A DNA stretch of 64,000 nucleotides from Hydrogenophilales bacterium CG_4_10_14_3_um_filter_63_21 (GTDB lineage Bacteria > Pseudomonadota > Gammaproteobacteria > Burkholderiales > Thiobacillaceae). Location: NCBI GenBank assembly GCA_002784045.1, contig PFJX01000113.1, positions 2,619 through 66,618 of the forward strand. The letters are read 5' to 3'. A program made the translations under genes and the position numbers. The notes under the pieces are model-generated. The model made no database searches and was not told where the DNA came from. It saw only the letters and a program-made list of their open reading frames with translations. Position 1 is the stretch's first letter. The number at the start of each line of letters is the position of its first letter. Positions 36,136-48,381 of the stretch are shown here, piece by piece.

Positions 36136-37566
36136 TTACCCCACCAATTTTTGATACAGCGCTTCATATTCCCTCGCGCTTTTCTCCCAACTGAAATCGC
36201 GCTTCATCCCGGCGCGCATCATGCGTTGCCACGCCTTCGCGTCGGTGTAAGTGTGCAAGGCACGCTCGATGGCCAGCCAGAGGGCGTGCGGCGTGGGTTC
36301 GTGGAAGACGAAACCGGTGACGCCGTCTTCCACCGTGTCTTGCAGGCCGCCGGTGGCGTGGACGATGGGCACCGTACCGTAGCGCAGGCTGTAGAGCTGA
36401 TTGAGGCCGCAAGGCTCGAAGCGGGAGGGCATCAGGAAGAGGTCGGAGCCGGCCTCGATGCGGTGCGACAGCCCTTCGTCATAGCCGATCACCGCCGCGA
36501 CCCGGCCTGGATGCTGTGCGCAGAGATCGCGGAAAGCCACTTCCAGTGCCTTCTCGCCGGTACCCAGCAAGGCGATCTGGCCGCCCCGGTGCAGGATGCC
36601 GTCGGCCACCGCAAGGATCAGGTCGAGGCCTTTCTGCTGCGCCAGGCGGGCGATGATCCCGAACAGCGGGGTGTCGTGGCTGGGCTCCAGGTTGAGATCC
36701 TGTTGCAGTTTGAGCTTGCAGTGCTTCTTGCCTATGAGCGCGCGCGAGGAAAACTTGCACGGCAGGTGGTGATCGGATGAGGGATTCCATTCGCCGCTGT
36801 CGATGCCGTTGAGGATGCCGACGAGGTCATCGCCGCGCGCGGCCAGCAGCCCCTGCATACCCATGCCCAGCGCGGGCTGGCGGATTTCCTCGGCATAGGT
36901 CGGCGAGACCGTGGTGAGGCGATCGGCGTAGTAAAGACCGGCCTTGAGGAAGGATAGGTTGCCGTAATACTCGACGCCTTCGACCGCGAAACTTTCCGGC
37001 GGCAGCCCCACCGTGATCAGGTCGGCGGGTGGGAAGATGCCCTGATAAGCCAGGTTGTGCACGGTCATGACGGTTGCCGTCGTTTCCCCGGCAAGGCGCA
37101 AATAAGCCGGGGCCAGGCCGGTTTGCCAGTCGTTGCAATGCAGAATGTCCGGGCGCCAGGCTAACGGCGCATTTTTGGAAAACTCGCTTGATGCGAGGAG
37201 GGCGGCGGCTTTGGAGAACACCGCGAAACGCAGGGCATTGTCGGGGTGGTCATGGCCGGCCACGTCTTGGTACGGTCCGCCCTCCCGCTGGAACAATTCG
37301 GGGGCATCGAGGATATAGAGCGGCACGCCGTTGTCGGGCATGGCGGCTTCCAGCAGGGTGGCCACCCTGCCGCCCGGCAGTTCATTCAGGGTGCACACGG
37401 GTTTCACGGCGTCGACCCCGGCCAGTACGGCCGGGTAACCGGGGAGCAATAGACGGCAGTCAAGGCCGATCGCGCGCAAGGCGACGGGGAGCGCGCCGGA
37501 AACATCGGCCAGCCCACCGGTCTTGATCAACGGTCTGGCTTCGGAAGTGGCGTACAGAATACGCAT
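36136..37566 (-). CDS. glgA: Glycogen synthase
   Basis: ORF 36136..37857 trimmed to ATG 37566 (MRILYATSEARPLIKTGGLADVSGALP...). Confidence 0.92.
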   Translation of the reverse strand: MRILYATSEARPLIKTGGLADVSGALPVALRAIGLDCRLLLPGYPAVLAGVDAVKPVCTLNELPGGRVATLLEAAMPDNGVPLYILDAPELFQREGGPYQDVAGHDHPDNALRFAVFSKAAALLASSEFSKNAPLAWRPDILHCNDWQTGLAPAYLRLAGETTATVMTVHNLAYQGIFPPADLITVGLPPESFAVEGVEYYGNLSFLKAGLYYADRLTTVSPTYAEEIRQPALGMGMQGLLAARGDDLVGILNGIDSGEWNPSSDHHLPCKFSSRALIGKKHCKLKLQQDLNLEPSHDTPLFGIIARLAQQKGLDLILAVADGILHRGGQIALLGTGEKALEVAFRDLCAQHPGRVAAVIGYDEGLSHRIEAGSDLFLMPSRFEPCGLNQLYSLRYGTVPIVHATGGLQDTVEDGVTGFVFHEPTPHALWLAIERALHTYTDAKAWQRMMRAGMKRDFSWEKSAREYEALYQKLVG

Positions 37567-37917
37567 GGAAAGTCCTTGAGTAGGAGGCCCGCTTGCGCGC
37601 CGAACTGCCACGCCCGCGCACGTTATGAAAGAAGTAATCGGGTATCCCGGTAACCCTACCGGAAACCCGTGTCCGCTTGAAGCGACCACAGCGATTGGCC
37701 GCAAACAAAAAGGATGGTTACGCGCGGCAACACCCGTCATGCCGAAATAGCGAGAGGACAGGTTGACGAAACCAGAGCGAAAGTGTTCATCCGGGATTAT
37801 TTCGCGGGGGACGTGCCGAGCTCGCCACCATCGGCCCAGCCGAGGCCACCGCCACAAGTTGTGTTTTTATGTCCTCTCTGCGCGATAGGTATCGCGGCTA
37901 TTGGCGGGGAGGGGGCG

Positions 37918-37949
37918 AAAAAAAGCCCCGCCGCGGAAGCCGGCGGGGC
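37918..37949 (-). terminator. Rho-independent terminator of the porin gene
   Basis: The minus strand reads gccccgccg-gcttccg-cggcggggc followed by TTTTTTT, about 35 nt after the stop at 37983. Confidence 0.8.
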
Positions 37950-37982: not shown

Positions 37983-39377
37983 TCAGTAAATCATCGTCAA
38001 TTGCACCCCCACCTTGTCACCCACCCCTTGCAGGTTGGCATTGGCGTTTGTGCAGGGAGCTCCCGCGGCAGTGCACTCGAAGTCACGCATCTCGTAGTTG
38101 ACGGTAACGCGTGTCTTGGGATTGAAGTGGTACTGCATCCCCAGGGTCCACTTGTCGAAGCGGTGCTCGTTCAGGCGCTCCTCAAGGCGGTTCAGGGTGT
38201 CGAAGCGCACATCGAGTTCGAACTTGGTGTTGGGGATGTACCAGCCGCCTTCGACATACCAGCCACTGGCCTTGGCATCGGCGCCATTGCCTTGGGCGGG
38301 AGCCGTAAAGTAGAAGTTGGGTTTGTCCGGGCCGCTCCAGATCATGCCATCCGCCGTGATGTACTCGGCCGTAACGCGGAACGGTTTCTTCATGTACTTC
38401 ACCCCCAGGCCGGCACGATCGCGGTTGTAGGATTTGGCGTTGGCCGTACTGTCAGCGGTGAGATCAAGAAGGCGCTTGCCCCACTGGCTCCAGGCGAAGA
38501 ACTTCAGGCCTGCCACATTGATGCCTTGGCCGCCGTACTTCTTCTCCGCTGACACATATAGGTACTTGTCGTATTCACCATCGCTGTTGTTGAACTGGAC
38601 GCCGTTGCCGTTGCCGATCATCGCCGCGTAGGACAGTTCCCAGTCTTTTCCCACATTGAAGGCATCGAACACCTGCACACCCACATCGCGGAAGGCGCCG
38701 ACCGAACTGTCGAATGTGTTCAGGCTGGCGCCGCCCTGAAGCTGGGCCTCGGTATACGGGCCAACATTGCTGGTGGCCGCGTTGCATGGAGCGGTGACCC
38801 CGGTGCAATCGGTGAACCCCTTGTTCGGGAACCGCTCCAGCAACAGGCCGTTGGTTGCTTCGGTGAAGTTGATGTAGTCGAAGACATGAATTGCCTGCAG
38901 CCCTTCTTCGGCGCCGGGCGTCTTGAACAGGCCGGCACGAATCCGTGCGCCCGGAATGTAATTCAGGGTAACGCTGGCATCGATCAGCTTGGCAAAGGCG
39001 CCGCTGGGGTGGGTGACTCCGTTGTTGCCCATCTCGAGCAACGCGAAATAGTTGATATTGCTGTCGAGCGGGAAGCCGGTGCCGCGGATGCCGATCGTGG
39101 CCCGCGGGATGTTGAAGCCGTCTTGTGTGTCGAGCTCAGGACCAAGCATTTTGGGCGCCACGAATCCCCCCGCGGCATTGGGGTCGCTGAAGTCCTTCTC
39201 ATACTTGGCCTGGACATACCCCCACACATTGGCGCGCGCCGAGGCGCCTGCCGGCTCGGTCCCCTGCAGCATGAGCCAGTTGGCGGCCAGCGCCGAGCCG
39301 GTGGCGCCGGCCAGGGCAAAAGCGTGGACGGCGCCAATCACGGTACGCTTGAACAGTTTCTTGCCTTGCATTTCCAT
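37983..39377 (-). CDS. Outer-membrane beta-barrel porin (family uncertain)
   Basis: 464 aa with a signal peptide ending ALA-ANW, alternating beta-strand pattern and a C-terminal ...GVQLTMIY aromatic end. Confidence 0.7.
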   Translation of the reverse strand: MEMQGKKLFKRTVIGAVHAFALAGATGSALAANWLMLQGTEPAGASARANVWGYVQAKYEKDFSDPNAAGGFVAPKMLGPELDTQDGFNIPRATIGIRGTGFPLDSNINYFALLEMGNNGVTHPSGAFAKLIDASVTLNYIPGARIRAGLFKTPGAEEGLQAIHVFDYINFTEATNGLLLERFPNKGFTDCTGVTAPCNAATSNVGPYTEAQLQGGASLNTFDSSVGAFRDVGVQVFDAFNVGKDWELSYAAMIGNGNGVQFNNSDGEYDKYLYVSAEKKYGGQGINVAGLKFFAWSQWGKRLLDLTADSTANAKSYNRDRAGLGVKYMKKPFRVTAEYITADGMIWSGPDKPNFYFTAPAQGNGADAKASGWYVEGGWYIPNTKFELDVRFDTLNRLEERLNEHRFDKWTLGMQYHFNPKTRVTVNYEMRDFECTAAGAPCTNANANLQGVGDKVGVQLTMIY

Positions 39378-39449
39378 TCCTCCTTGAGCAGATCCAACAG
39401 GATCAAAACAGGGCCGGTTGCCCTGAAAATGGGTAAAGCTATGTATTGA

Positions 39450-39896
39450 TCAGGGTTTGACGTAGATGTAGCCCTGCTTGACCAGCTCGCCGATGCGCAC
39501 GATGCCGCCGGGCACAACCTTGGCGACCGGGTTCAGCTTGGGTTCTTCACCGAGCTGCTTGGTGAAGCCCTTCAGCGTGTTGCCGCAAGCGGCGAAACGC
39601 ACGCCACTCTGAGCAAGAGAATCAAGACGCTGGGCGTTGACGTTGTTGGCGAACATCAGACGCAGGCCGGGGCCATAGGCCACGATCTCGATGTCCACTT
39701 GCCCGGGCGGGTAGGCCTCCAGGAGGTTCGCGGCGTTGTTCAGGATGAGATCCTGCTTGGAAGGATCCAGGTCACTGATGTGCAGGACGTAGTGGTAGTC
39801 CGCCATGCTTTGCTCGGCCGCCAGAACCGATGTGGGGTTGGTGATGGAAAGCAGGGAGATGAAGGCCAGGGCCAGGGTGCGTAGCGAGCAATACAT
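39450..39896 (-). CDS. Secreted DsrE/DsrF-like (COG1416-type) protein, paralogue 1
   Basis: 148 aa, signal peptide. Core YVLHISDLD...IEIVAYGPGLRLM...VRFAACGNTLKG...VVPGGIVRIGELVKQGYIYVKP. Confidence 0.7.
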   Translation of the reverse strand: MYCSLRTLALAFISLLSITNPTSVLAAEQSMADYHYVLHISDLDPSKQDLILNNAANLLEAYPPGQVDIEIVAYGPGLRLMFANNVNAQRLDSLAQSGVRFAACGNTLKGFTKQLGEEPKLNPVAKVVPGGIVRIGELVKQGYIYVKP

Positions 39897-40101
39897 CGAG
39901 AGTCTCCATTGGGTTGTAAATCATGAAATTGCGTCGTTGCTAGAGGCGCCGTAAGCAAGCCGATGGCCTGACGGTTATCGTCAAAGCACAGCATTTCGGG
40001 GGGGCGAGACGAAAGGAAGAAATTCCCCATCGTCTTGATCAATCTCCGGCCGGGACCGGAGGTTTGTCGGTGGTGAAACTGCCTGAGGCTTGAGTGCCAG
40101 C

Positions 40102-40581
40102 TCAGGGTTTCAGGTAGACAAAACCCTCTCTGGCCTGGAGCTTGCCGATTTCGGCGACACCGGAGGGCACCACCTGGGCTTCCAGGATCACGGCGCTGTC
40201 ATCCAGCTTGCGGCCCTTGAGGGTGTTGCGGCACACATCGAAAGTGACGCCGCGGTTCTTCAGGCCTGCCACTTGGGGTTCGTACAGGCCCTTGTCGTCC
40301 TTGGCCTCGTTGAGCAAGAAGTCGATGCCTTTGCCGTGGGTAACCACCACGATCTGGACGCCCGGGCTGGCATCCAGGTGGTTTTCTATATTGCGCAAAG
40401 CCATGCGTGCGACGCTGGCATCGTTGATGTGGTAGACCACTTTTTCCTGGACCGGCGCTTCTTCCACGACCGGCACGGCCGGCTTCATGTGTGTGGCGGC
40501 GGTGGCGGGGACACTGAAGCCCGCGCTTGCGGCGCCCAGTGCGAGGCTGAATAACGTGGCGCGAATCAATGAATGCTGCAT
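40102..40581 (-). CDS. Secreted DsrE/DsrF-like (COG1416-type) protein, paralogue 2
   Basis: 159 aa, signal peptide. Core VVYHINDAS...IVVVTHGKGIDFL...VTFDVCRNTLKG...VVPSGVAEIGKLQAREGFVYLKP. Confidence 0.7.
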   Translation of the reverse strand: MQHSLIRATLFSLALGAASAGFSVPATAATHMKPAVPVVEEAPVQEKVVYHINDASVARMALRNIENHLDASPGVQIVVVTHGKGIDFLLNEAKDDKGLYEPQVAGLKNRGVTFDVCRNTLKGRKLDDSAVILEAQVVPSGVAEIGKLQAREGFVYLKP

Positions 40582-40632
40582 GGTCTACTCCAAAGAGGGT
40601 TATGAGCGGGTGTTGTCAAACACCTTGCGAAT

Positions 40633-40661
40633 AAGACGGGCCGGCCTCTCTGTTTATTCCC
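40633..40661 (-). promoter_or_regulatory. Candidate ECF-type promoter GGGAATAAAC-N13-CGTCTT facing the DsrE-like/porin genes
   Basis: The minus strand reads GGGAATAAAC (40661..40652), 13 nt, CGTCTT (40638..40633). Both boxes are the same words as in the plus-strand copy. Confidence 0.5.
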
Positions 40662-40682
40662 GGATTTATTTTTCTCTTTGCA

Positions 40683-40711
40683 GGGAATAAACCGGGTGCC
40701 AGCTCCGTCTT
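40683..40711 (+). promoter_or_regulatory. Candidate autoregulated ECF-type promoter GGGAATAAAC-N13-CGTCTT facing the sigma factor gene
   Basis: GGGAATAAAC at 40683-40692, 13 nt, CGTCTT at 40706-40711. AGGAGA at 40730-40735 and TTG start at 40741. Confidence 0.5.
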
Positions 40712-40740
40712 GTTAAAACAAGGCCCACCAGGAGAAGCCT

Positions 40741-41286
40741 TTGTTGCCCTTCGTGTTCGATTTCGCCACTCGCCGCCGTCTCGAGGCCATGCGGCCCCGC
40801 TTGTACCGGCTGGCCTACGCTTGGTGCCATGACCCGCATCTGGCCGATGATCTGGCGCAGGATGCGCTGGCCAAGTCGCTCACCCGCATGGCGCAGTTGC
40901 GTGAGGCTCAGGCTCTGGAGGGCTGGCTGTTTTCGATCCTCAACAACTGTTGGCGCGATCATTTGCGTGGAGGCCGCGAGTTCGAGGACATCGCCGAGAT
41001 GGATGAGCTGATTTACTCCGGCGAGCCCGGCCCCGAGCAGCAGGTTTCCCGGCGCCAGACGCGTGACCGGGTGCGCCGCGCCATCGCCTGCCTGCCACTG
41101 GGGCAGCGCCAGGTGCTGACCCTGGTGGACATCGAGGAATGCGCCTATGCGCAAGTGGCCGGAATTCTGGAAATCCCGGTAGGCACGGTGATGAGCCGTC
41201 TCTCACGCGCGCGCCAGGCGTTGCGCGGGCTTCTGGAGAACGAGGATAAACGCGTCACGCAGACGCACCTCAGGAGGGTGAAATGA
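40741..41286 (+). CDS. ECF (group 4) sigma-70 family sigma factor
   Basis: 181 aa. Region 2 (LADDLAQDALAKSL...GWLFSILNNCWRDHLR) and region 4 (LPLGQRQVLTLVDIEECAYAQVAGILEIPVGTVMSRLSRAR). TTG start with a good SD. ATGA overlap with the next gene. Confidence 0.8.
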   Translation: MLPFVFDFATRRRLEAMRPRLYRLAYAWCHDPHLADDLAQDALAKSLTRMAQLREAQALEGWLFSILNNCWRDHLRGGREFEDIAEMDELIYSGEPGPEQQVSRRQTRDRVRRAIACLPLGQRQVLTLVDIEECAYAQVAGILEIPVGTVMSRLSRARQALRGLLENEDKRVTQTHLRRVK

Positions 41287-42014
41287 ACGAGTCAAAAAAC
41301 GAACCGGTTTCGCGCGAGCACATCAACGCTTATCTGGATGGCGAACTGGCCCTCGAGGAGCGCGAACACCTGCTAATTCGGATGGCGAGCGATCCCAACC
41401 TGCGCGCCGAAATTTGCGCCCAACGCACCCTCAAGGAACAGGTTCGCGCCGCTTATGACGACCTGCCGCGCCCCAATGCCAGCGCCACGCACCGCTACCT
41501 CAACGCGGCCTGGCGCCAATCGCTGGCGGCGGGGGTGTTGTTGGTCCTGGGCTTGAGCGGTGGCTGGTTGGCCCATGATCGTCTGGATCAATCGCCGGTA
41601 GTCGAGCGCCTAGCGGGCCTGCCCGCTGGTTTACAGCCGGTTACCCTGAGTGAACGGGTGGATACGCAACGCGTGGTTCTGCATCTCGATAGCAGCGCCC
41701 CAGAGCGCCTTTCCGCTTCACTGGATGTAGCGGAGCGTCTGGCGCGGTCACGCGGCCAGGGCCAGGTGGAGCTGGTGGTCAACAGCTTCGGACTGGACCT
41801 GCTGCGCCAGGATCGCAGCCCCGAGCGGGCGCGCATCGAGCGCCTGGCGGAACGTTATCCCAACCTGGTCTTCGTAGCCTGCGGCCAGACCGTGGCGCGC
41901 CTGCTGCGGGAAGGGCAACCAGTGGTGTTGCTGCCGGAGGCGCGCGTGGCCTCGTCCGCCATCAATGAAATCATGGCGCGACTGCGCCAGGGCTGGGTGT
42001 ACGTGAAAGTTTGA
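41283..42014 (+). CDS. Membrane anti-sigma factor with periplasmic DsrE-like domain
   Basis: 243 aa. N-terminal anti-sigma helix (HINAYLDGELALEEREHLL), one TM (LAAGVLLVLGLSGGWLA), then VVLHLDSS...VELVVNSFGLDLL...LVFVACGQTVAR...RLRQGWVYVKV, which is alignable to the two secreted paralogues. Confidence 0.7.
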   Translation: MNESKNEPVSREHINAYLDGELALEEREHLLIRMASDPNLRAEICAQRTLKEQVRAAYDDLPRPNASATHRYLNAAWRQSLAAGVLLVLGLSGGWLAHDRLDQSPVVERLAGLPAGLQPVTLSERVDTQRVVLHLDSSAPERLSASLDVAERLARSRGQGQVELVVNSFGLDLLRQDRSPERARIERLAERYPNLVFVACGQTVARLLREGQPVVLLPEARVASSAINEIMARLRQGWVYVKV

Positions 42015-42256: not shown

Positions 42257-42280
42257 CGCACTGCTCAACGCACTGCTCAA
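42257..42280. repeat. 2 x 12-bp perfect tandem repeat (cgcactgctcaa) spanning the ispB stop codon
   Basis: Copies at 42257-42268 and 42269-42280. The minus strand reads ...GAA TTT TGA GCA GTG CGT TGA..., giving two in-frame stops. Confidence 0.9.
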
Positions 42281-43245
42281 AATTCGCGGCTGACCGCGAA
42301 GGCCGACAATTCTAGCAAAGCCGCCTTGTATTGGCTATCCGGAATCGCCGCCAAAGCGTTGCGTGCCAAGGCGGCTTCAGCCTCGGCCTGGCGGCGAGCG
42401 TGGTCGAGGGCGCCGGTGTTCCGCACGATGGTGAGGATTTCATCGAAGTGGCTGGCATCGCCCTGCTTGATGGCGTTGCGGATGCTTTCAGCCTGCTCCG
42501 GAGCGGCGTGCTTCATGGCGAACAGCAAGGGGAGGGTGGGCTTGCCTTCGGCCAGGTCGTCGCCGACGTTCTTGCCGATCACCTCGCTGGTTCCGGAATA
42601 GTCCAGGACATCGTCGATAATCTGGAACGCGGTGCCCAGGTGCATGCCGTAAGCTCCCAGGGCATCTTCCTGCTCTCGCGCGGCGCCCACGATGATGGCG
42701 CCCAGGCGTCCGGCGGCTTCGAACAATTTCGCGGTCTTGTAGCGGATGACGCGCAGATAGGCTGCCTCGTCGACGTCCGGGTCATTGCAATTCATGAGCT
42801 GCAAGACCTCGCCCTCGGCAATGACGTTGGTGGCATCCGAGAGCACTTCCATGACGCGCATGTTGTGCAGTGAAACCATCATCTGAAATGCGCGGGAATA
42901 AAGAAAGTCGCCCACCAGTACGCTGGCCGCGTTGCCAAACAGGGCATTGGCGGTATCCCTGCCGCGGCGCAGGGCGGAGGTGTCCACCACATCATCGTGG
43001 AGCAAGGTTGCGGTATGGATGAACTCCACCACGGCGGCGAGTTCGTGATGTTGCCCGCCGTCATGGCCCATCGCCTTCGCCGAAAGCACCACCAGGGCGG
43101 GCCGCAGGCGTTTGCCGCCACTGTGGATGATGTATTCGGAAACCTGCCGCACCAGCGCGACATCGGAGTGCAAGCGTAAACGGATGACCTGATCGACCTG
43201 GGCCATGTCGGCGCTCAGGAGCGCTTGCAGCGGGGTGGATGACAC
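42277..43245 (-). CDS. ispB: Octaprenyl diphosphate synthase
   Basis: 322 aa with both polyprenyl synthase Asp-rich motifs (LLHDDVVD and QIIDDVLD). Confidence 0.9.
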   Translation of the reverse strand: MSSTPLQALLSADMAQVDQVIRLRLHSDVALVRQVSEYIIHSGGKRLRPALVVLSAKAMGHDGGQHHELAAVVEFIHTATLLHDDVVDTSALRRGRDTANALFGNAASVLVGDFLYSRAFQMMVSLHNMRVMEVLSDATNVIAEGEVLQLMNCNDPDVDEAAYLRVIRYKTAKLFEAAGRLGAIIVGAAREQEDALGAYGMHLGTAFQIIDDVLDYSGTSEVIGKNVGDDLAEGKPTLPLLFAMKHAAPEQAESIRNAIKQGDASHFDEILTIVRNTGALDHARRQAEAEAALARNALAAIPDSQYKAALLELSAFAVSREF

Positions 43246-43716: not shown

Positions 43717-44043
43717 ATGTTTGGCATGGTCAACATCAAGGAACTGGACGTCGATGCCCTCGACGCCAACAAGGCACAAATCCACCTGATCGACGTGCGC
43801 ACGGAAGGTGAGGTGTCGCGTGGCGTCATCGACGGGGCCATCCACATTCCGTTGCACCTGCTGCCGTTGCGCGCGACGGAAATTCCGCAGGACAAGCCGG
43901 TGGTGATCTACTGCAATTCGGGTGCCCGTTCCGCGCAAGCCTGTGCCTTCATGGCCGCCAAGGGCTTCCAAAATATGCACAATCTGTCGGGTGGCATCAT
44001 GGCCTGGGCGCGTTCCGGCAAGCCGCTCGCGGCCTTGTCCTGA
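43717..44043 (+). CDS. Single-domain rhodanese sulfurtransferase
   Basis: 108 aa with active-site loop CNSGARS. First gene of a rhd-tusA-dsrE2 arrangement. Confidence 0.8.
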   Translation: MFGMVNIKELDVDALDANKAQIHLIDVRTEGEVSRGVIDGAIHIPLHLLPLRATEIPQDKPVVIYCNSGARSAQACAFMAAKGFQNMHNLSGGIMAWARSGKPLAALS

Positions 44044-44154
44044 GCGCCTTGGGAGGGCTTGATCCAGGCCCTGGCCTCGCGTTGCAATCTCCCCACAAGC
44101 GGTATAAATTACCCCGGCTTTTTTAGCACTTGTTAATTTTCTGAAGGAACACCC

Positions 44155-44382
44155 ATGAACTTCGACAAAGAACTCGACGCCAAAGGGCTGAACTGCCCTC
44201 TGCCCATCCTTCGCTGCAAGAAGGCCCTGAACGATATGACCTCCGGCCAGATCCTGCGCGTGATCGCCACTGACCCGGGTTCCGTCAAGGACTTCGCCGC
44301 CTTTGCCAAACAGACCGGCAACGAACTCCTTACCTCCGCCGAAGCGGGTGGCGAGTACACCTTCTTCATCAAGAGGAAGTAA
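44155..44382 (+). CDS. tusA: TusA-family sulfur carrier
   Basis: 75 aa with the LDAKGLNCPLPILRCKKAL CPxP motif. Confidence 0.85.
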   Translation: MNFDKELDAKGLNCPLPILRCKKALNDMTSGQILRVIATDPGSVKDFAAFAKQTGNELLTSAEAGGEYTFFIKRK

Positions 44383-44418
44383 GCACTTCTTTCCAACAAT
44401 CGCGTTTCGAGAGGTGGT

Positions 44419-44934
44419 GTGATGGACGATACAAAGAAGCTGGCGATCATTGCGACCAAGGGCACGCTGGACTGGGCTTACCCCCCGTTCATTCTGGCGT
44501 CCACGGCCGCCGCCCTGGGTTATGAAACCCAGATTTTCTTCACCTTCTACGGCCTGCAGATGCTGCGCAAAGATCTGAGCTGCCTGAAGGTCAGCCCCCT
44601 GGGCAACCCGGGTATGCCCATGAAGATGCCGTTCGGACCGAAGTGGTTCAAGGACATCAACTGGAACATCCCCAACGCCGTGCAATCGCTGATTCCGGGC
44701 TACGAATCCCTGGCCACCACCCTGATGAAGCAAACCATCAAGAACAACGGCGTGGCAACCATCCCTGAACTGCGTGAGCTGTGCCAGGAAGCCGAAGTCA
44801 AGTTCATCGCCTGCCAGATGACGGTCGAATTGTTTGGCTTCGAACACAGCGACTTTATCGACGGCATCGAATACGGCGGCGCCGCCACCTTCTTCGAATT
44901 CGCCGGCGAGACGGACATCTGTCTGTTCATTTAA
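44419..44934 (+). CDS. dsrE2: DsrE2-like (DsrE/DsrF family) protein
   Basis: 171 aa. KLAIIATKGTLDWAYPPFILASTAAALG...FIACQMTV... follows tusA, as in described rhd-tusA-dsrE2 clusters. Confidence 0.75.
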   Translation: MMDDTKKLAIIATKGTLDWAYPPFILASTAAALGYETQIFFTFYGLQMLRKDLSCLKVSPLGNPGMPMKMPFGPKWFKDINWNIPNAVQSLIPGYESLATTLMKQTIKNNGVATIPELRELCQEAEVKFIACQMTVELFGFEHSDFIDGIEYGGAATFFEFAGETDICLFI

Positions 44935-44952
44935 GGCTGGTTAACAAGTATC

Positions 44953-44984
44953 AAAAAAGCCGCCCTAGGGCGGCTTTTTTATTT
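44953..44984 (+). terminator. Rho-independent terminator after dsrE2
   Basis: aaaaaagccgccc-ta-gggcggctttttt followed by attt. Confidence 0.8.
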
Positions 44985-44987
44985 ATA

Positions 44988-45230
44988 TCAATCGGTTACC
45001 GTGAAAATCGCCAACGACCCGTGCGGGGCGCTCCTGTAACTGGCCCTTCCAGTCGATGTTCTGGTTGGGAGGTATGTCGAATATTGCGCCAACTCGGCCA
45101 AGGCCTTATCGCCCTTGAGCGCTGCCATCGCCACTTGCGCCTTGGCTGCTGGCGAGTGGTTGCGTCGTTTCCCTTCTGCTCTTGCTCCTTTCTGGGCCTC
45201 ATACATGGCGCAGTGCGGCAAGGCTATCAC
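44988..45230 (-). pseudogene. IS3-family transposase OrfA remnant (frameshifted and truncated)
   Basis: KRRNHSPAAKAQVAMAALKGDKALAELAQ matches the conserved IS3 OrfA N-terminus. The continuation FDIPPNQNIDWKGQLQERPARV is readable only in another frame. There is no OrfB and no terminal repeats. Confidence 0.6.
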
Positions 45231-45314
45231 TTAGCGGGCTGTCCGAATTTCCGTGGCCCTCTGTATGGCGTTTAGATGGGGAGTCTGGACGCTTACGGTT
45301 GAGCGGTAGGTGGT

Positions 45315-45364
45315 ATTCAACAATTCAACATTGTTCTTGACAACGAAAACTATAGGTATAAAAA
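45315..45364 (+). promoter_or_regulatory. Candidate promoter of the molybdoenzyme block
   Basis: AT-rich junction: 2 x 8-bp direct repeat attcaaca (45315-45330), TTGACA (45337-45342), 16 nt, TAAAAA (45359-45364). The -10 is weak. Confidence 0.3.
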
Positions 45365-45447
45365 GAGATTCATGTCTTTCTACCAAGCGTTTGTTTGAAT
45401 ACTTGATTGTGAGGCACTTTTTTTGTCCTTAACACGAGGAGAAACAA

Positions 45448-48381
45448 ATGAATCTGCTCGACAACAGCCTGACCCGGCGGGATTTCCTCAAGGTCACCGG
45501 GAGCGTCGCGGTCATGACGCAAATCCAGCCGGCGAGCGCCCAGGAATGGCTGTCGCAAGTTGGCAAAACAGGGTCGAAGGCCGATGTGGTCGGCACCGAC
45601 GCCAAGCTCGTGCGTAGCGTCTGTCTGATGTGCCATAGCGGTTGCGGCATCCAGGGCACGATCGTCAACGGCGAGCTGGTCAAGCTCGACGGCAACCCCT
45701 ATCACCCGAACACCTACGACTATGTGTCCAAGGGTGACCTCGTCGAGGAGAGCGATCTCGACGGCGGCATCGGCGGCAAGGATGTGGGCACGTTGTGCGC
45801 GAAGGGTCAGGCGGGCGTCTATGCCCTCTACAACGCCAACCGCCTCAAGCACCCGCTGAAGCGGGTCGGCCCGCGCGGCTCCGGCAAGTGGAAAACCATC
45901 TCCTGGGAACAGGCGATGACGGAAATCGCCGAGGGCGGGATGCTGTTCAAGGACGTGCCGGGTGAAGAGACCCGGGTGGTCGAGGGGCTCAAGTCCATCC
46001 TCAGCAACGACAAGCCCATCGGGCCCGAAGATTCCGACTTCATGGACGAGGCGCCGCCCGAAGGCTATGGCCCGAAACGCAACCAGTTTGTCTGGGCGCA
46101 CGGACGCAATGAGCAGTCGCCGCTGACCCCGCGTTTCGTCAAGGAAGCGGCCGGCGTGCCGCACATGCTCAACCACTGCGACCGCTGCTCCGGCACCCTC
46201 TACAACGTGATCGAGCATTGCCTGAACGTGCCGCCTTACGAGATCGGCGCCTATGCCGATTACGAATACTGTAGTTACCTGATCAGCGTGGGTTCCAACG
46301 TCACCCACGCCGACTACCCCGGCCAGACCCGTGCACGCTACCTGCAGAAGTTCGCCAAGCGCACGGGGCCTTACGCCAAGGAGTTCAAGCATGTGGTCGT
46401 CGATCCCTGGCTCTCGCCGGCGGCGGCCAAGGCCCTGCAGTCGGGCAAGGGCGAGTGGATCCCCCTCAAACCCGCCAGCGACGCCTTCTTCCTGATCGGC
46501 ATGAACCGCTGGATGATCGACAACAAGGCCTACAAGGCGGACTACCTGGCCCTACCCAACGAGCAGGCGGCGAAGAAGACCGGTCGCCGCAACTGGACCG
46601 ACATGACCTACCTGGTCAGGACTGTGGAGCCGAAGCTCTACCTCACCGGCAAGGATGCCGGGCTGGGCCAGTCCGACTACGTGGTGCTGGTGGGCGGCAA
46701 GCCGACCCTGTTCCACGATGTGGAAGGTGCGGCGGACCTGGATGCCGAGGTCGAAATCAAGGGCGTGGTGTACAAGACGGTGTTCCGCCTGCTGCGCGAG
46801 CGCAGCCACGAGAAGACCCTCGAGGAATGCGAGCAGGAATGCGACATTCCGCCCGGGACGATTGCCCATCTGGCTCGGGAGTTCGCCAATGCCAAGCACC
46901 CGGTCATCGAGTTTGCCCGCGGCCCCATCCAGCAGAGCAACGGTTGGTGGAACGGCCAGGCGCTCATCACCTTGAACATGATGGTCGACAACATCGACCG
47001 CAAGGGCGGCTATATCCCTGGCCACAAGGCTTACGGCGGGGACGTGAAAAATCCCGTCAAGCGCTCGGCGACAGGCGTGACGATCGATCGCCACAAGTCG
47101 AAGTATCAGGGCAAGAAGACGCTCTCCACCCGGCCCTGGTATCCGTTGGCCTCGCGCACGGTGACCAGCGAGTTTTTCTCCTCCCTGCGCCAGGGCTACC
47201 CCTATCGCATCAAGGCCTACCTCAACTACTACAACGACCCGGCCTACACGCAGCCGTTCAACACGCCGGTGATCGAGGCGTTGCTGAACCTGAAGGCCAT
47301 GCCGCTCACCTTCAGCATCGACGCCAACATGGGTGAGACCAGCCAGTTGTGCGATTACGTGTTGCCGGACTCGACTTACCTGGAGCGCATCGGCGGCTTC
47401 AAGACCTATCCACCGGTCAAGACGCGCGTCGCCGGCGTGCGGATGCCGATGGTGGGCACGCTGGACCCGGTAACGAAGAACTATCGCGGCCTCTATCCGG
47501 ATGTGCAGACCGGTGACGACACCCTGATCCAGCTCGCACTGCGCTGCGGTCTGCCCGGTTTCGGCAAGGACGCCGGTGGGCCGGGGGTGGATCTCTTCAA
47601 CTCCTGGCAGTTCTGGAACGAGTATTTCAAGAACGGCGACTACAAGGGCGAGCCGGGGCTGGATCCGGACAGCCGCCTGATCAAGTTGGGCGGCAAGTTC
47701 GAGAATCCGGGCAAGCAATATGATGCCGAAGGCGTATACACGCGTTTCCCGGGCAGCCGGCAGGTACGCGGCCTGATGGCCTACGCGTCGAACGTGGCGG
47801 CCAACAAGAACAGCATGACCGGCAAGTATTTCGACGGTCTGCCGACCTACCGCGCCATCATCGACTGCAAGGAACAGCCGCTCGATCCCGCCCTGTGGCA
47901 GGAATATCCGTTCCAATTGCATACCCACAAGGACGCCTGGCACACCCAGTCGCGCACCATGGACAACCTCTGGCTGGCCTCGATCAAGCCGCAGAATTTC
48001 GCGGAAATGAATCCGGCCGATGCACAGAGGCTGGACGTCATCACCGGCGACTGGGTCAAGGTGAAGTCGCCGTCTTCCAAGCACATCCCCTTCGTGGAAC
48101 TTTCGTTGGGCGATGGCTGGTTCAAGATGCAGGTGCGCGTCACCAGCCGCATCCGCCCGGGGGTTTTCTCGGTGAACCAGGGCTATGGGCGCTGGGGGGC
48201 CGGAGGCAGGAAGTGGGATGCGGACGGCAAGTCGCAGTTCTACGACAAGCGCATCGCTGCGGGTTTCAGCATCAATCCGCTGTACATGGCCGATCCCGTT
48301 TTGGGCGACCGCGTCATGTGCGATCCGGTGGCGGGTGGCACCCAGAGCAACGGGACCCCGTTGCGCGTGGAAAAAGTCTGA
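45448..48381 (+). CDS. Tat-exported molybdopterin (Mo-bisPGD) oxidoreductase catalytic subunit, TtrA-like
   Basis: 977 aa. Twin-arginine signal LTRRDFLKV...PASA and an N-terminal FeS motif CLMCHSGCG. DGNPYHPN, IGMNRWMIDNKAYKADYLALPN, QGYPYRIKAYL and DYVLPDSTYLE resemble Salmonella TtrA as I remember it. Confidence 0.75.
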   Translation: MNLLDNSLTRRDFLKVTGSVAVMTQIQPASAQEWLSQVGKTGSKADVVGTDAKLVRSVCLMCHSGCGIQGTIVNGELVKLDGNPYHPNTYDYVSKGDLVEESDLDGGIGGKDVGTLCAKGQAGVYALYNANRLKHPLKRVGPRGSGKWKTISWEQAMTEIAEGGMLFKDVPGEETRVVEGLKSILSNDKPIGPEDSDFMDEAPPEGYGPKRNQFVWAHGRNEQSPLTPRFVKEAAGVPHMLNHCDRCSGTLYNVIEHCLNVPPYEIGAYADYEYCSYLISVGSNVTHADYPGQTRARYLQKFAKRTGPYAKEFKHVVVDPWLSPAAAKALQSGKGEWIPLKPASDAFFLIGMNRWMIDNKAYKADYLALPNEQAAKKTGRRNWTDMTYLVRTVEPKLYLTGKDAGLGQSDYVVLVGGKPTLFHDVEGAADLDAEVEIKGVVYKTVFRLLRERSHEKTLEECEQECDIPPGTIAHLAREFANAKHPVIEFARGPIQQSNGWWNGQALITLNMMVDNIDRKGGYIPGHKAYGGDVKNPVKRSATGVTIDRHKSKYQGKKTLSTRPWYPLASRTVTSEFFSSLRQGYPYRIKAYLNYYNDPAYTQPFNTPVIEALLNLKAMPLTFSIDANMGETSQLCDYVLPDSTYLERIGGFKTYPPVKTRVAGVRMPMVGTLDPVTKNYRGLYPDVQTGDDTLIQLALRCGLPGFGKDAGGPGVDLFNSWQFWNEYFKNGDYKGEPGLDPDSRLIKLGGKFENPGKQYDAEGVYTRFPGSRQVRGLMAYASNVAANKNSMTGKYFDGLPTYRAIIDCKEQPLDPALWQEYPFQLHTHKDAWHTQSRTMDNLWLASIKPQNFAEMNPADAQRLDVITGDWVKVKSPSSKHIPFVELSLGDGWFKMQVRVTSRIRPGVFSVNQGYGRWGAGGRKWDADGKSQFYDKRIAAGFSINPLYMADPVLGDRVMCDPVAGGTQSNGTPLRVEKV

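Follow-up and report, generated by a model that had tools for sequence, protein, structure and literature searches.

A mirror-image pair of predicted ECF promoters and an anti-sigma factor with a DsrE-fold domain in a conserved module of sulfur oxidisers

A 64,000-nt stretch of the genome of Hydrogenophilales bacterium CG_4_10_14_3_um_filter_63_21 (contig PFJX01000113.1; the whole stretch is called the window) contains two divergent gene groups, one for a sigma factor of the extracytoplasmic function (ECF) kind and its anti-sigma factor, the other for two DsrE-like proteins and a porin. In the intergenic region between them stand two copies of one bipartite motif in mirror-image orientation, each facing one of the gene groups. 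The twin motifs are very probably independent divergent promoters that depend on the adjacent ECF sigma factor, and the module to which they belong is widely conserved in sulfur oxidisers.

On the plus strand, GGGAATAAAC (40683-40692) is followed by a 13-nt spacer and CGTCTT (40706-40711), while on the minus strand the forward letters GTTTATTCCC (40652-40661) and AAGACG (40633-40638) read as the same GGGAATAAAC-N13-CGTCTT. Read directly, the boxes are identical at 16 of 16 positions and equally spaced, as a preliminary description of this DNA had claimed; its further statement that the spacers are unrelated stands in so far as their similarity is not significant, and is too strong in so far as 6 of 13 positions are shared, modestly more than expected at 63% G+C. 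With up to 2 mismatches allowed, a search of both strands of the 64 kb returned these two sites only, against a chance expectation of 0.04, and none of 100 shuffled sequences (0/100) held two or more matches. A two-block weight matrix derived from orthologous sites scored both copies at 22.6 bits and the runner-up position in the window at 13.1. That the twin occurrence is a chance match within an intergenic region, a view for which the shortness of the boxes speaks and nothing more, is next to inconceivable given these counts and the enrichment over 77 loci described below. The paired sites and the segment between them are as follows.

40683-40711, plus strand: predicted promoter toward the sigma/anti-sigma operon (sequence, uniqueness, conservation, match to mapped ECF26 promoters)
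40633-40661, minus strand: predicted promoter toward the DsrE-like/DsrE-like/porin operon (sequence, uniqueness, reverse copy in 41/77 loci, close-range footprint)
40662-40682, no strand: A+T-rich core of 21 nt separating the two -35 boxes, GGATTTATTTTTCTCTTTGCA (composition)

Conservation of the motif was assessed in loci that encode homologues of the anti-sigma factor, which form more than 120 clusters at 37-89% identity. A profile of 20 of these homologues retrieved 80 genomic loci, 77 of them usable and amounting to 680 kb; six of the contigs (L001-L006) are near-identical population contigs, too similar to inform. Among the loci retrieved, carriers of the module are confined to sulfur oxidisers, with members of the Gallionellaceae, Thiobacillus, Parasulfuritortus, Hydrogenophilales, Sulfuritalea, Thioalkalivibrio, Halothiobacillus, Woeseiaceae and other Beta- and Gammaproteobacteria; the cultured carriers include Thiobacillus denitrificans (L018), Parasulfuritortus cantonensis (L010), Thioalkalivibrio versutus (L059) and T. 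denitrificans ALJD (L061). The orthologous sigma gene lies directly 5' of the anti-sigma gene in nearly all loci, and a DsrE-like gene is usually divergent from the sigma gene, often followed by a porin gene.

When both strands of the 77 complete loci were scanned for GGAATA-N15-17-CGTC, 110 of the 127 matches fell within 400 nt upstream of a sigma start, a zone that makes up 4.5% of the sequence and in which the motif is thus enriched ~136-fold. The motif spans 26 nt in 104 of these 110 sites, and 10 of the 17 outlying matches stand in front of other genes of the locus, either DsrE-like or for a second sigma paralogue. A sigma-facing copy is present in 69 of the 77 loci, 41 of which also have a copy on the opposite strand; loci with a single site point at the sigma gene without exception (28/28), and no locus has the opposite orientation only. 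The preliminary description had taken the sigma-facing copy as a sign of autoregulation, a reading strengthened by its retention 5' of the orthologous sigma gene in those 69 loci and by the presence of variants in most of the others. Its reading of the second copy as a target promoter likewise gains support, since this copy follows the DsrE-like genes even where they are placed elsewhere in the locus.

The conservation is concentrated in the boxes themselves. The family consensus at -35 is tGGAATAAa, and positions that the scan pattern did not force are conserved all the same: the A after GGAAT, the A-rich extension, the T after CGTC and the final C of CGTC, this fourth-position C being kept at 98%. 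Spacer positions, by comparison, carry ~0.1 bit each, and among close relatives (54-89% anti-sigma identity) the boxes are the sole invariant intergenic columns. In 65 of 69 loci the -10 box is separated by 13-63 nt from the start codon extrapolated for the sigma gene, and in 34 of 37 by 2-85 nt from the DsrE-like start, whereas divergent copies stand anywhere from 11 to 156 nt apart. Together, the fixed spacing, strict orientation, promoter-like distance and variable gap argue for promoters rather than for an operator or a structural element.

An operator would be a single palindromic site at which a transcription factor, as a dimer or tetramer, binds and controls the two operons. Divergent operons often share one, and the two arms here do form a 32-nt inverted repeat with 75% complementarity. 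A shared site is, however, hard to reconcile with the variable distance between copies, with the 28 single-copy loci that always face the sigma gene, or with the copies that stand alone, at a distance from the sigma gene, before DsrE-like genes, sox genes and a transporter gene. Each copy is moreover bipartite in itself, with the fixed 17-nt spacing of mapped ECF promoters, and the sigma factor is the only conserved syntenic DNA-binding regulator, all of which makes an operator very unlikely. It is also extremely improbable that the region is a structural DNA or RNA element unrelated to initiation (a cruciform, hairpin, terminator, repetitive extragenic palindromic-like repeat or small RNA). 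The single-stranded DNA from 40625 to 40720 does fold with an energy of -17.7 kcal/mol (z = -3.6), but this pairing and fold energy are by-products of a motif that occurs twice in inverted orientation. A T run is lacking, and the region lies between two gene starts, not gene ends; the window holds no other copy, and Rfam returned no match. Elsewhere the copies stand at variable distances or singly, which leaves no conserved structure, and compensatory spacer changes that would preserve pairing were not seen across relatives.

Within the window, the sites are placed as promoters of the two flanking genes would be. The sigma gene starts with TTG at 40741, 29 nt after CGTCTT, and a ribosome-binding site (AGGAG, 40730-40734) lies within that stretch; the first DsrE-like protein starts with ATG at 40581, downstream of the minus-strand promoter. 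By comparison with mapped promoters of Sinorhizobium meliloti, transcription would be predicted to start near 40718 on the plus strand and near 40626 on the minus strand. No sigma-70-like promoter was found in the intergenic region. The segment between the -35 boxes (40662-40682) has 71% A+T, compared with 37% across the window, and the equivalent gaps in 33 loci average 60% A+T, compared with 37% for the loci; it may act as a shared region resembling an UP element.

The preliminary description had likened the boxes to the -35/-10 architecture of ECF-dependent promoters, and their match to ECF26 promoters mapped by rapid amplification of cDNA ends (5'-RACE) bears this out. In S. meliloti, 5'-RACE and RNA-seq defined the promoters of rpoE4 (GGAATAAG-N14-CGTCTC), SMc04291 (GGGAATAG-N14-CGTCTC), sorT (GGGAAT-N16-CGTCTC) and the rpoE1 operon (GGGAATAAA-N14-TGTCTT) (PMC6180224), and 5'-RACE together with heterologous reporters confirmed a consensus for S. 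meliloti and Starkeya novella of GGAAT at -35 and CGTC at -10 (PMC6527743). The distance from GGAAT to CGTC is 17 nt in both window copies, and the mapped S. meliloti promoters are alike in this. An engineered promoter of the same group, Pecf26_up601, reads TGGAATAA-N14-CGTTT (PMC3817407). According to the ECF classification 2.0, promoters of ECF26 have GGAATAAA at -35 with GTT at -10, and GGAATAAA-Xn-GTC is predicted for ECF207, which was split from ECF26; in that scheme ECF12, 26, 15, 206 and 207 are close groups, and autoregulation is the rule for ECF26. The match to the ECF26 and ECF207 motifs means that the promoter type is already known.

The two promoters would serve the following genes.

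40741-41286, plus strand: ECF sigma factor, 181 aa (Pfam Sigma70_r2 2.4e-12, Sigma70_r4_2 1.4e-15; NCBIfam sigma70-ECF above cut-off)
41283-42014, plus strand: anti-sigma factor, 243 aa (start overlaps the sigma stop codon)
40102-40581, minus strand: periplasmic DsrE-like protein 1, 159 aa, with signal peptide and conserved Cys117 (Pfam DsrE 4.2e-10; PDB 1L1S 1.3e-9)
39450-39896, minus strand: periplasmic DsrE-like protein 2, 148 aa, with signal peptide (Pfam DsrE 8.6e-6)
37983-39377, minus strand: outer-membrane porin of the Porin_O_P family, 464 aa (Pfam Porin_O_P 1.7e-10; syntenic in many loci)
37925-37949, minus strand: strong hairpin resembling an intrinsic terminator, 9 G-C pairs followed by a T run (closes the target operon)

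The product of 40741-41286 has Sigma70_r2 and Sigma70_r4_2 as its only domains and is therefore an ECF sigma factor. On the opposite strand, the gene for DsrE-like protein 1 is the first of the target operon, its product is paralogous to DsrE-like protein 2 (7e-14), and the porin gene is probably the last, co-transcribed with the other two.

The anti-sigma factor is less ordinary than the promoters, and its DsrE-fold domain had been overlooked in the preliminary description. It consists of a three-helix N-terminal domain (~11-59), a transmembrane helix (~75-101) and a periplasmic DsrE-fold domain (~118-243). In an AlphaFold2 model (predicted local distance difference test score, pLDDT, 87.8), three helices at the N-terminus are followed by a long transmembrane helix and then by an alpha/beta domain. 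The N-terminus resembles anti-sigma domains: over 58 aa it shares 41% identity with AS26_837, an anti-sigma factor of ECF26 (E = 1e-5), and it scores 17.6 bits with Pfam zf-HC2, under the cut-off of 22.2; the zinc motifs HxxxCxxC and CxxC are absent from the cytoplasmic domain, in which C45 is the sole invariant cysteine. In the periplasmic domain, H134 and C200 are invariant across 86 family members. A profile of the anti-sigma family matches MTH1491 (PDB 1L1S) over residues 126-239 with E = 9e-15, and Foldseek aligned the alpha/beta domain with 1L1S at a TM-score of 0.88 and a root-mean-square deviation of 1.9 A, with further matches to 2PD2 and to the DsrE/YchN-type structures 3PNX, 1JX7 and 3MC3. 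The C-terminal 115 residues are in turn homologous to both DsrE-like proteins (E = 6e-11 for protein 2 and 1e-6 for protein 1), and C200 aligns with a cysteine that is kept in 74 of 74 secreted DsrE-like targets and is also found in MTH1491. This homology and the common invariant cysteine identify the sensor domain of the regulator as a paralogue of its predicted targets. A search of open-access papers and preprints found no DsrE-domain anti-sigma factor and no such regulon, and the group descriptions of the ECF classification 2.0 make no mention of DsrE; an ECF sigma module whose anti-sigma factor has a DsrE-fold sensor paralogous to its targets thus appears to be undescribed in the literature searched.

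These features are consistent with a mechanism in which GGAATAAA would serve as the -35 element, read by sigma region 4, and CGTC(TT), 17 nt downstream of GGAAT, as the -10 element, read by region 2. The plus-strand copy would drive the sigma/anti-sigma operon in a positive autoregulation checked by the co-produced anti-sigma factor, while the minus-strand copy would drive the operon of the two secreted DsrE-like proteins and the porin. At rest, the N-terminal domain of the anti-sigma factor would hold the sigma factor at the inner membrane; a periplasmic signal acting on its DsrE-fold domain would then release the sigma factor, and both promoters would fire together. The signal would most probably be a reduced or sulfane sulfur species on an invariant cysteine, plausibly Cys200. 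Release may involve regulated proteolysis, which operates in other single-pass anti-sigma factors. The analysis shows the motif with its uniqueness, conservation, orientation and placement, the domain architecture, and the paralogy of sensor and targets; we infer from these where transcription starts, that it depends on the sigma factor, what the signal is and how release comes about.

The adjacent sigma factor need not be the one that reads the boxes in vivo. A paralogous ECF26/207-type factor encoded elsewhere could do so, in which case the adjacent factor would not be autoregulated: GGAATAAA/GTC-type promoters are common to the whole clade (ECF26, ECF207), some loci hold two sigma paralogues (L026, L082), and RpoE1 and RpoE4 of S. 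meliloti cross-activate each other's promoters (PMC6180224). On the other hand, the motif stands directly 5' of the same sigma gene in ~70 genomes from two proteobacterial classes, and, with autoregulation the rule for ECF26, parsimony favours the adjacent factor; recognition by a sigma factor encoded elsewhere is for these reasons unlikely. Cross-activation is one of several points that weigh against the twin motifs as promoters of the adjacent factor and against the proposed mechanism. The divergent second copy was found in only 41 of 77 loci (within 400 nt, strict pattern), and two loci (L045, L069) offer weak candidate sites only, none convincing. In a BLASTP comparison with 56 sigma factors from 43 original groups, the window sigma factor was closest to ECF26_4464 (90.9 bits, 40% identity), a small margin over the next match, from ECF12 (80.1 bits), and ECF12 was the best match for 4 of 8 other family members; given this margin and the closeness of the groups, we call the factor ECF26/207-like and assign it to no group. 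The DsrE fold and the conserved cysteine suggest sulfur chemistry and do not demonstrate it. Finally, a search of open-access papers and preprints found no transcription-start, expression or binding data for this locus or its orthologues.

Several loci depart from the common arrangement. In some Gammaproteobacteria (L065, L078, L084) the -10 box is a CATC variant, TGGAATAAA-N13-GCATCTT. Two rearranged loci (L046, L047) have the DsrE-like, porin, sigma and anti-sigma genes all co-directional, with one weaker motif (TGGAAGCAAT-N12-CGTCTT, 12.6 bits) 5' of the first gene and none directly before the sigma gene. In five Thioalkalivibrio loci (L055, L056, L058, L059, L070) the DsrE-like gene is not divergent, but follows the anti-sigma gene in the same direction; the sole motif there is the sigma-facing GGAATAGC...GCGTC, so that the DsrE-like gene may belong to the autoregulated operon. 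One locus (L082, CAVYIJ010000001.1), from a metagenome-assembled genome labelled 'uncultured Halobacteria archaeon', carries this module, which is of bacterial type and here includes DsrE-like genes as well as two sigma paralogues; the contig looks mis-binned or mislabelled.

The closest characterised counterparts are RpoE4/EcfR4-sorT and RpoE1/EcfR1 of S. meliloti and SigE-sorAB of Starkeya novella, which share the GGAAT(AAA)-N17-CGTC(T) architecture found here. As found or predicted in the window, these ECF26 systems comprise an autoregulated operon in which the sigma gene is followed at +1 by the gene of a single-pass anti-sigma factor, and a small regulon of periplasmic sulfur-metabolism proteins adjoining the sigma gene; their sigma factors, the nearest characterised ones, respond to sulfite or thiosulfate. 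They differ in the anti-sigma factor, which is COG5662/RsiW-like or of the zinc-finger type there and has a DsrE-fold periplasmic domain without HxxxCxxC here; in their targets, which are sulfite dehydrogenase, cytochrome and pseudoazurin rather than DsrE-like proteins and a porin; and in their hosts, which are heterotrophic or facultative Alphaproteobacteria rather than chemolithotrophic Beta- and Gammaproteobacteria. The group description of ECF207 is also close: the target promoter predicted for it is the very motif seen in the window, the group belongs to Proteobacteria, and its anti-sigma factor has one transmembrane helix and is encoded at +1. Its conserved neighbours are, however, a calcineurin-like phosphoesterase and a cupredoxin, with DsrE not mentioned. 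Anti-sigma factors of ECF26 and ECF207 carry a zinc finger (HX3CX2C) and/or an RskA/COG5662-type domain, and the anti-sigma factor of the window was not found to do so. The RpoE-RseA-RseB system of E. coli offers a more general likeness: there too a single-pass anti-sigma factor with a sensing part in the periplasm holds an ECF sigma factor, the operon is autoregulated, and targets lie in the outer membrane. Its promoter (GGAACTT/TCTRA), sensor domain and signal are different, and for the window regulated proteolysis is an assumption.

For the sensor domain and the regulated proteins, the closest solved relatives are the small proteins MTH1491 (PDB 1L1S) and ST0148 (PDB 2PD2) (E = 1e-9 for the regulated proteins), which share with the window proteins a Cys-x-N/S-T motif and a C-terminal GW-Y-x-K/R motif. 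Both are stand-alone cytoplasmic archaeal proteins, whereas here the fold is secreted or fused to a transmembrane anti-sigma domain. Sulfur-relay proteins of the DsrEFH, TusBCD and DsrE3 types also have the DsrE fold and a conserved cysteine, whose position carries persulfide sulfur in these relays. They form hetero-oligomers in the cytoplasm, and both their sequences and their structures are more distant (TM-score 0.5-0.7). We know of no signalling role for proteins of these types.

A tentative extension of the proposed mechanism, which we put forward as a possibility and hold to be rather doubtful, is that the module is a so far unrecognised trans-envelope sulfur sensor of chemolithotrophic sulfur oxidisers with feedback built in. 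Persulfidation of Cys200, or the binding there of polysulfide or of thiosulfate-derived sulfur, would free the ECF sigma factor. This would induce the secreted paralogues of the sensor, the porin and, depending on the lineage, also soxYZ, a transporter of the YeeE type and cytochromes c. Since proteins of the DsrE family oligomerise, free paralogues, once induced, could in addition bind to the sensor domain or draw sulfur from it. Were this true, the feedback would be such that the carrier proteins of the pathway themselves report their loading state to the regulator.

The range of genes behind the motif bears on the scope of the regulon. At a matrix score of at least 12, the 77 loci contain 168 sites, of which 73 stand before sigma genes, 60 before DsrE-like genes and 35 before other sequences. 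The top sites of the last class precede soxY (L067), an open reading frame with SoxZ at its end (L064), a Sulf_transp transporter of the YeeE/YedE type (L039) and c-type cytochromes (L060, L084); a TlpA-like redoxin stands behind a TGTC variant of the -10 box (L043, L051, L080), which resembles the TGTC of the S. meliloti rpoE1 operon. These predicted targets, the confinement of the carriers to sulfur oxidisers and the sulfite or thiosulfate response of the nearest sigma factors link the module to the oxidation or handling of reduced sulfur in the periplasm. As no further site occurs in the window, the predicted local regulon consists of the two divergent operons, and the claim of a self-contained regulon made in the preliminary description holds for these 64 kb only; in other lineages the motif also precedes soxYZ, the sulfur transporter, cytochromes c and the redoxin. 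Among the exact motif matches listed, at least 79 in number, on metagenome contigs from unrelated habitats, 9 are closely followed by an ECF sigma gene and 2 by a DsrE-like gene, which fits a promoter that is autoregulatory across the clade and is uninformative on the regulon of the source genome.

The promoter pair in itself is a textbook ECF arrangement of a catalogued type and will not surprise a specialist. Its value lies in defining a conserved regulon that is tied to a sigma/anti-sigma pair with a DsrE-fold sensor module. To our knowledge, few regulators have been described for sulfur sensing in the periplasm or for induction of the oxidation machinery in lithotrophic sulfur oxidisers, and we know of no established function for the MTH1491-like branch of the DsrE superfamily, which here receives a first functional context as secreted proteins co-regulated with a porin or soxYZ. 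Because the promoter is easily recognised, regulons can be predicted in any genome and tested by simple reporter assays.

Some smaller features of the target operon may be added. A weak terminator-like hairpin (39409-39425, minus strand; 6 pairs followed by TTTTGATCCT) lies in the gap between DsrE-like gene 2 and the porin gene, and could, by attenuation, keep porin expression below that of the genes before it. Within the interval from one DsrE-like gene to the other, 40006-40028 on the minus strand reads GGGGAATTTCTTCCTTTCGTCTC, in which GGAAT and CGTC are 10 nt apart (GGAAT-N10-CGTC) instead of having the 17-nt spacing. This wrongly spaced, low-scoring sequence was rejected as a third site before DsrE-like gene 2; a full-length site occupies the equivalent place in one related locus (L007, 3695, minus strand), and the boxes in the window could be a decayed internal promoter or a coincidence.

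The module is flanked by housekeeping genes for a glycogen/starch synthase (36136-37857, minus strand) and a polyprenyl (octaprenyl-type) diphosphate synthase (42277-43245, minus strand). In close relatives (L087, L088) the downstream neighbour is a 6-phosphogluconate dehydrogenase, so that conservation does not extend to the flanks even where identity is 78-87%. A sulfur-trafficking cluster (43717-48381, plus strand), upstream of which no ECF motif was found, begins some 2 kb downstream of the module. Its members include a rhodanese (108 aa), TusA (75 aa), a protein of the DsrE2/DrsE_2 family (44419-44934) and a molybdopterin oxidoreductase of 977 aa whose signal resembles that of twin-arginine translocation (Tat) substrates (45448-48381).

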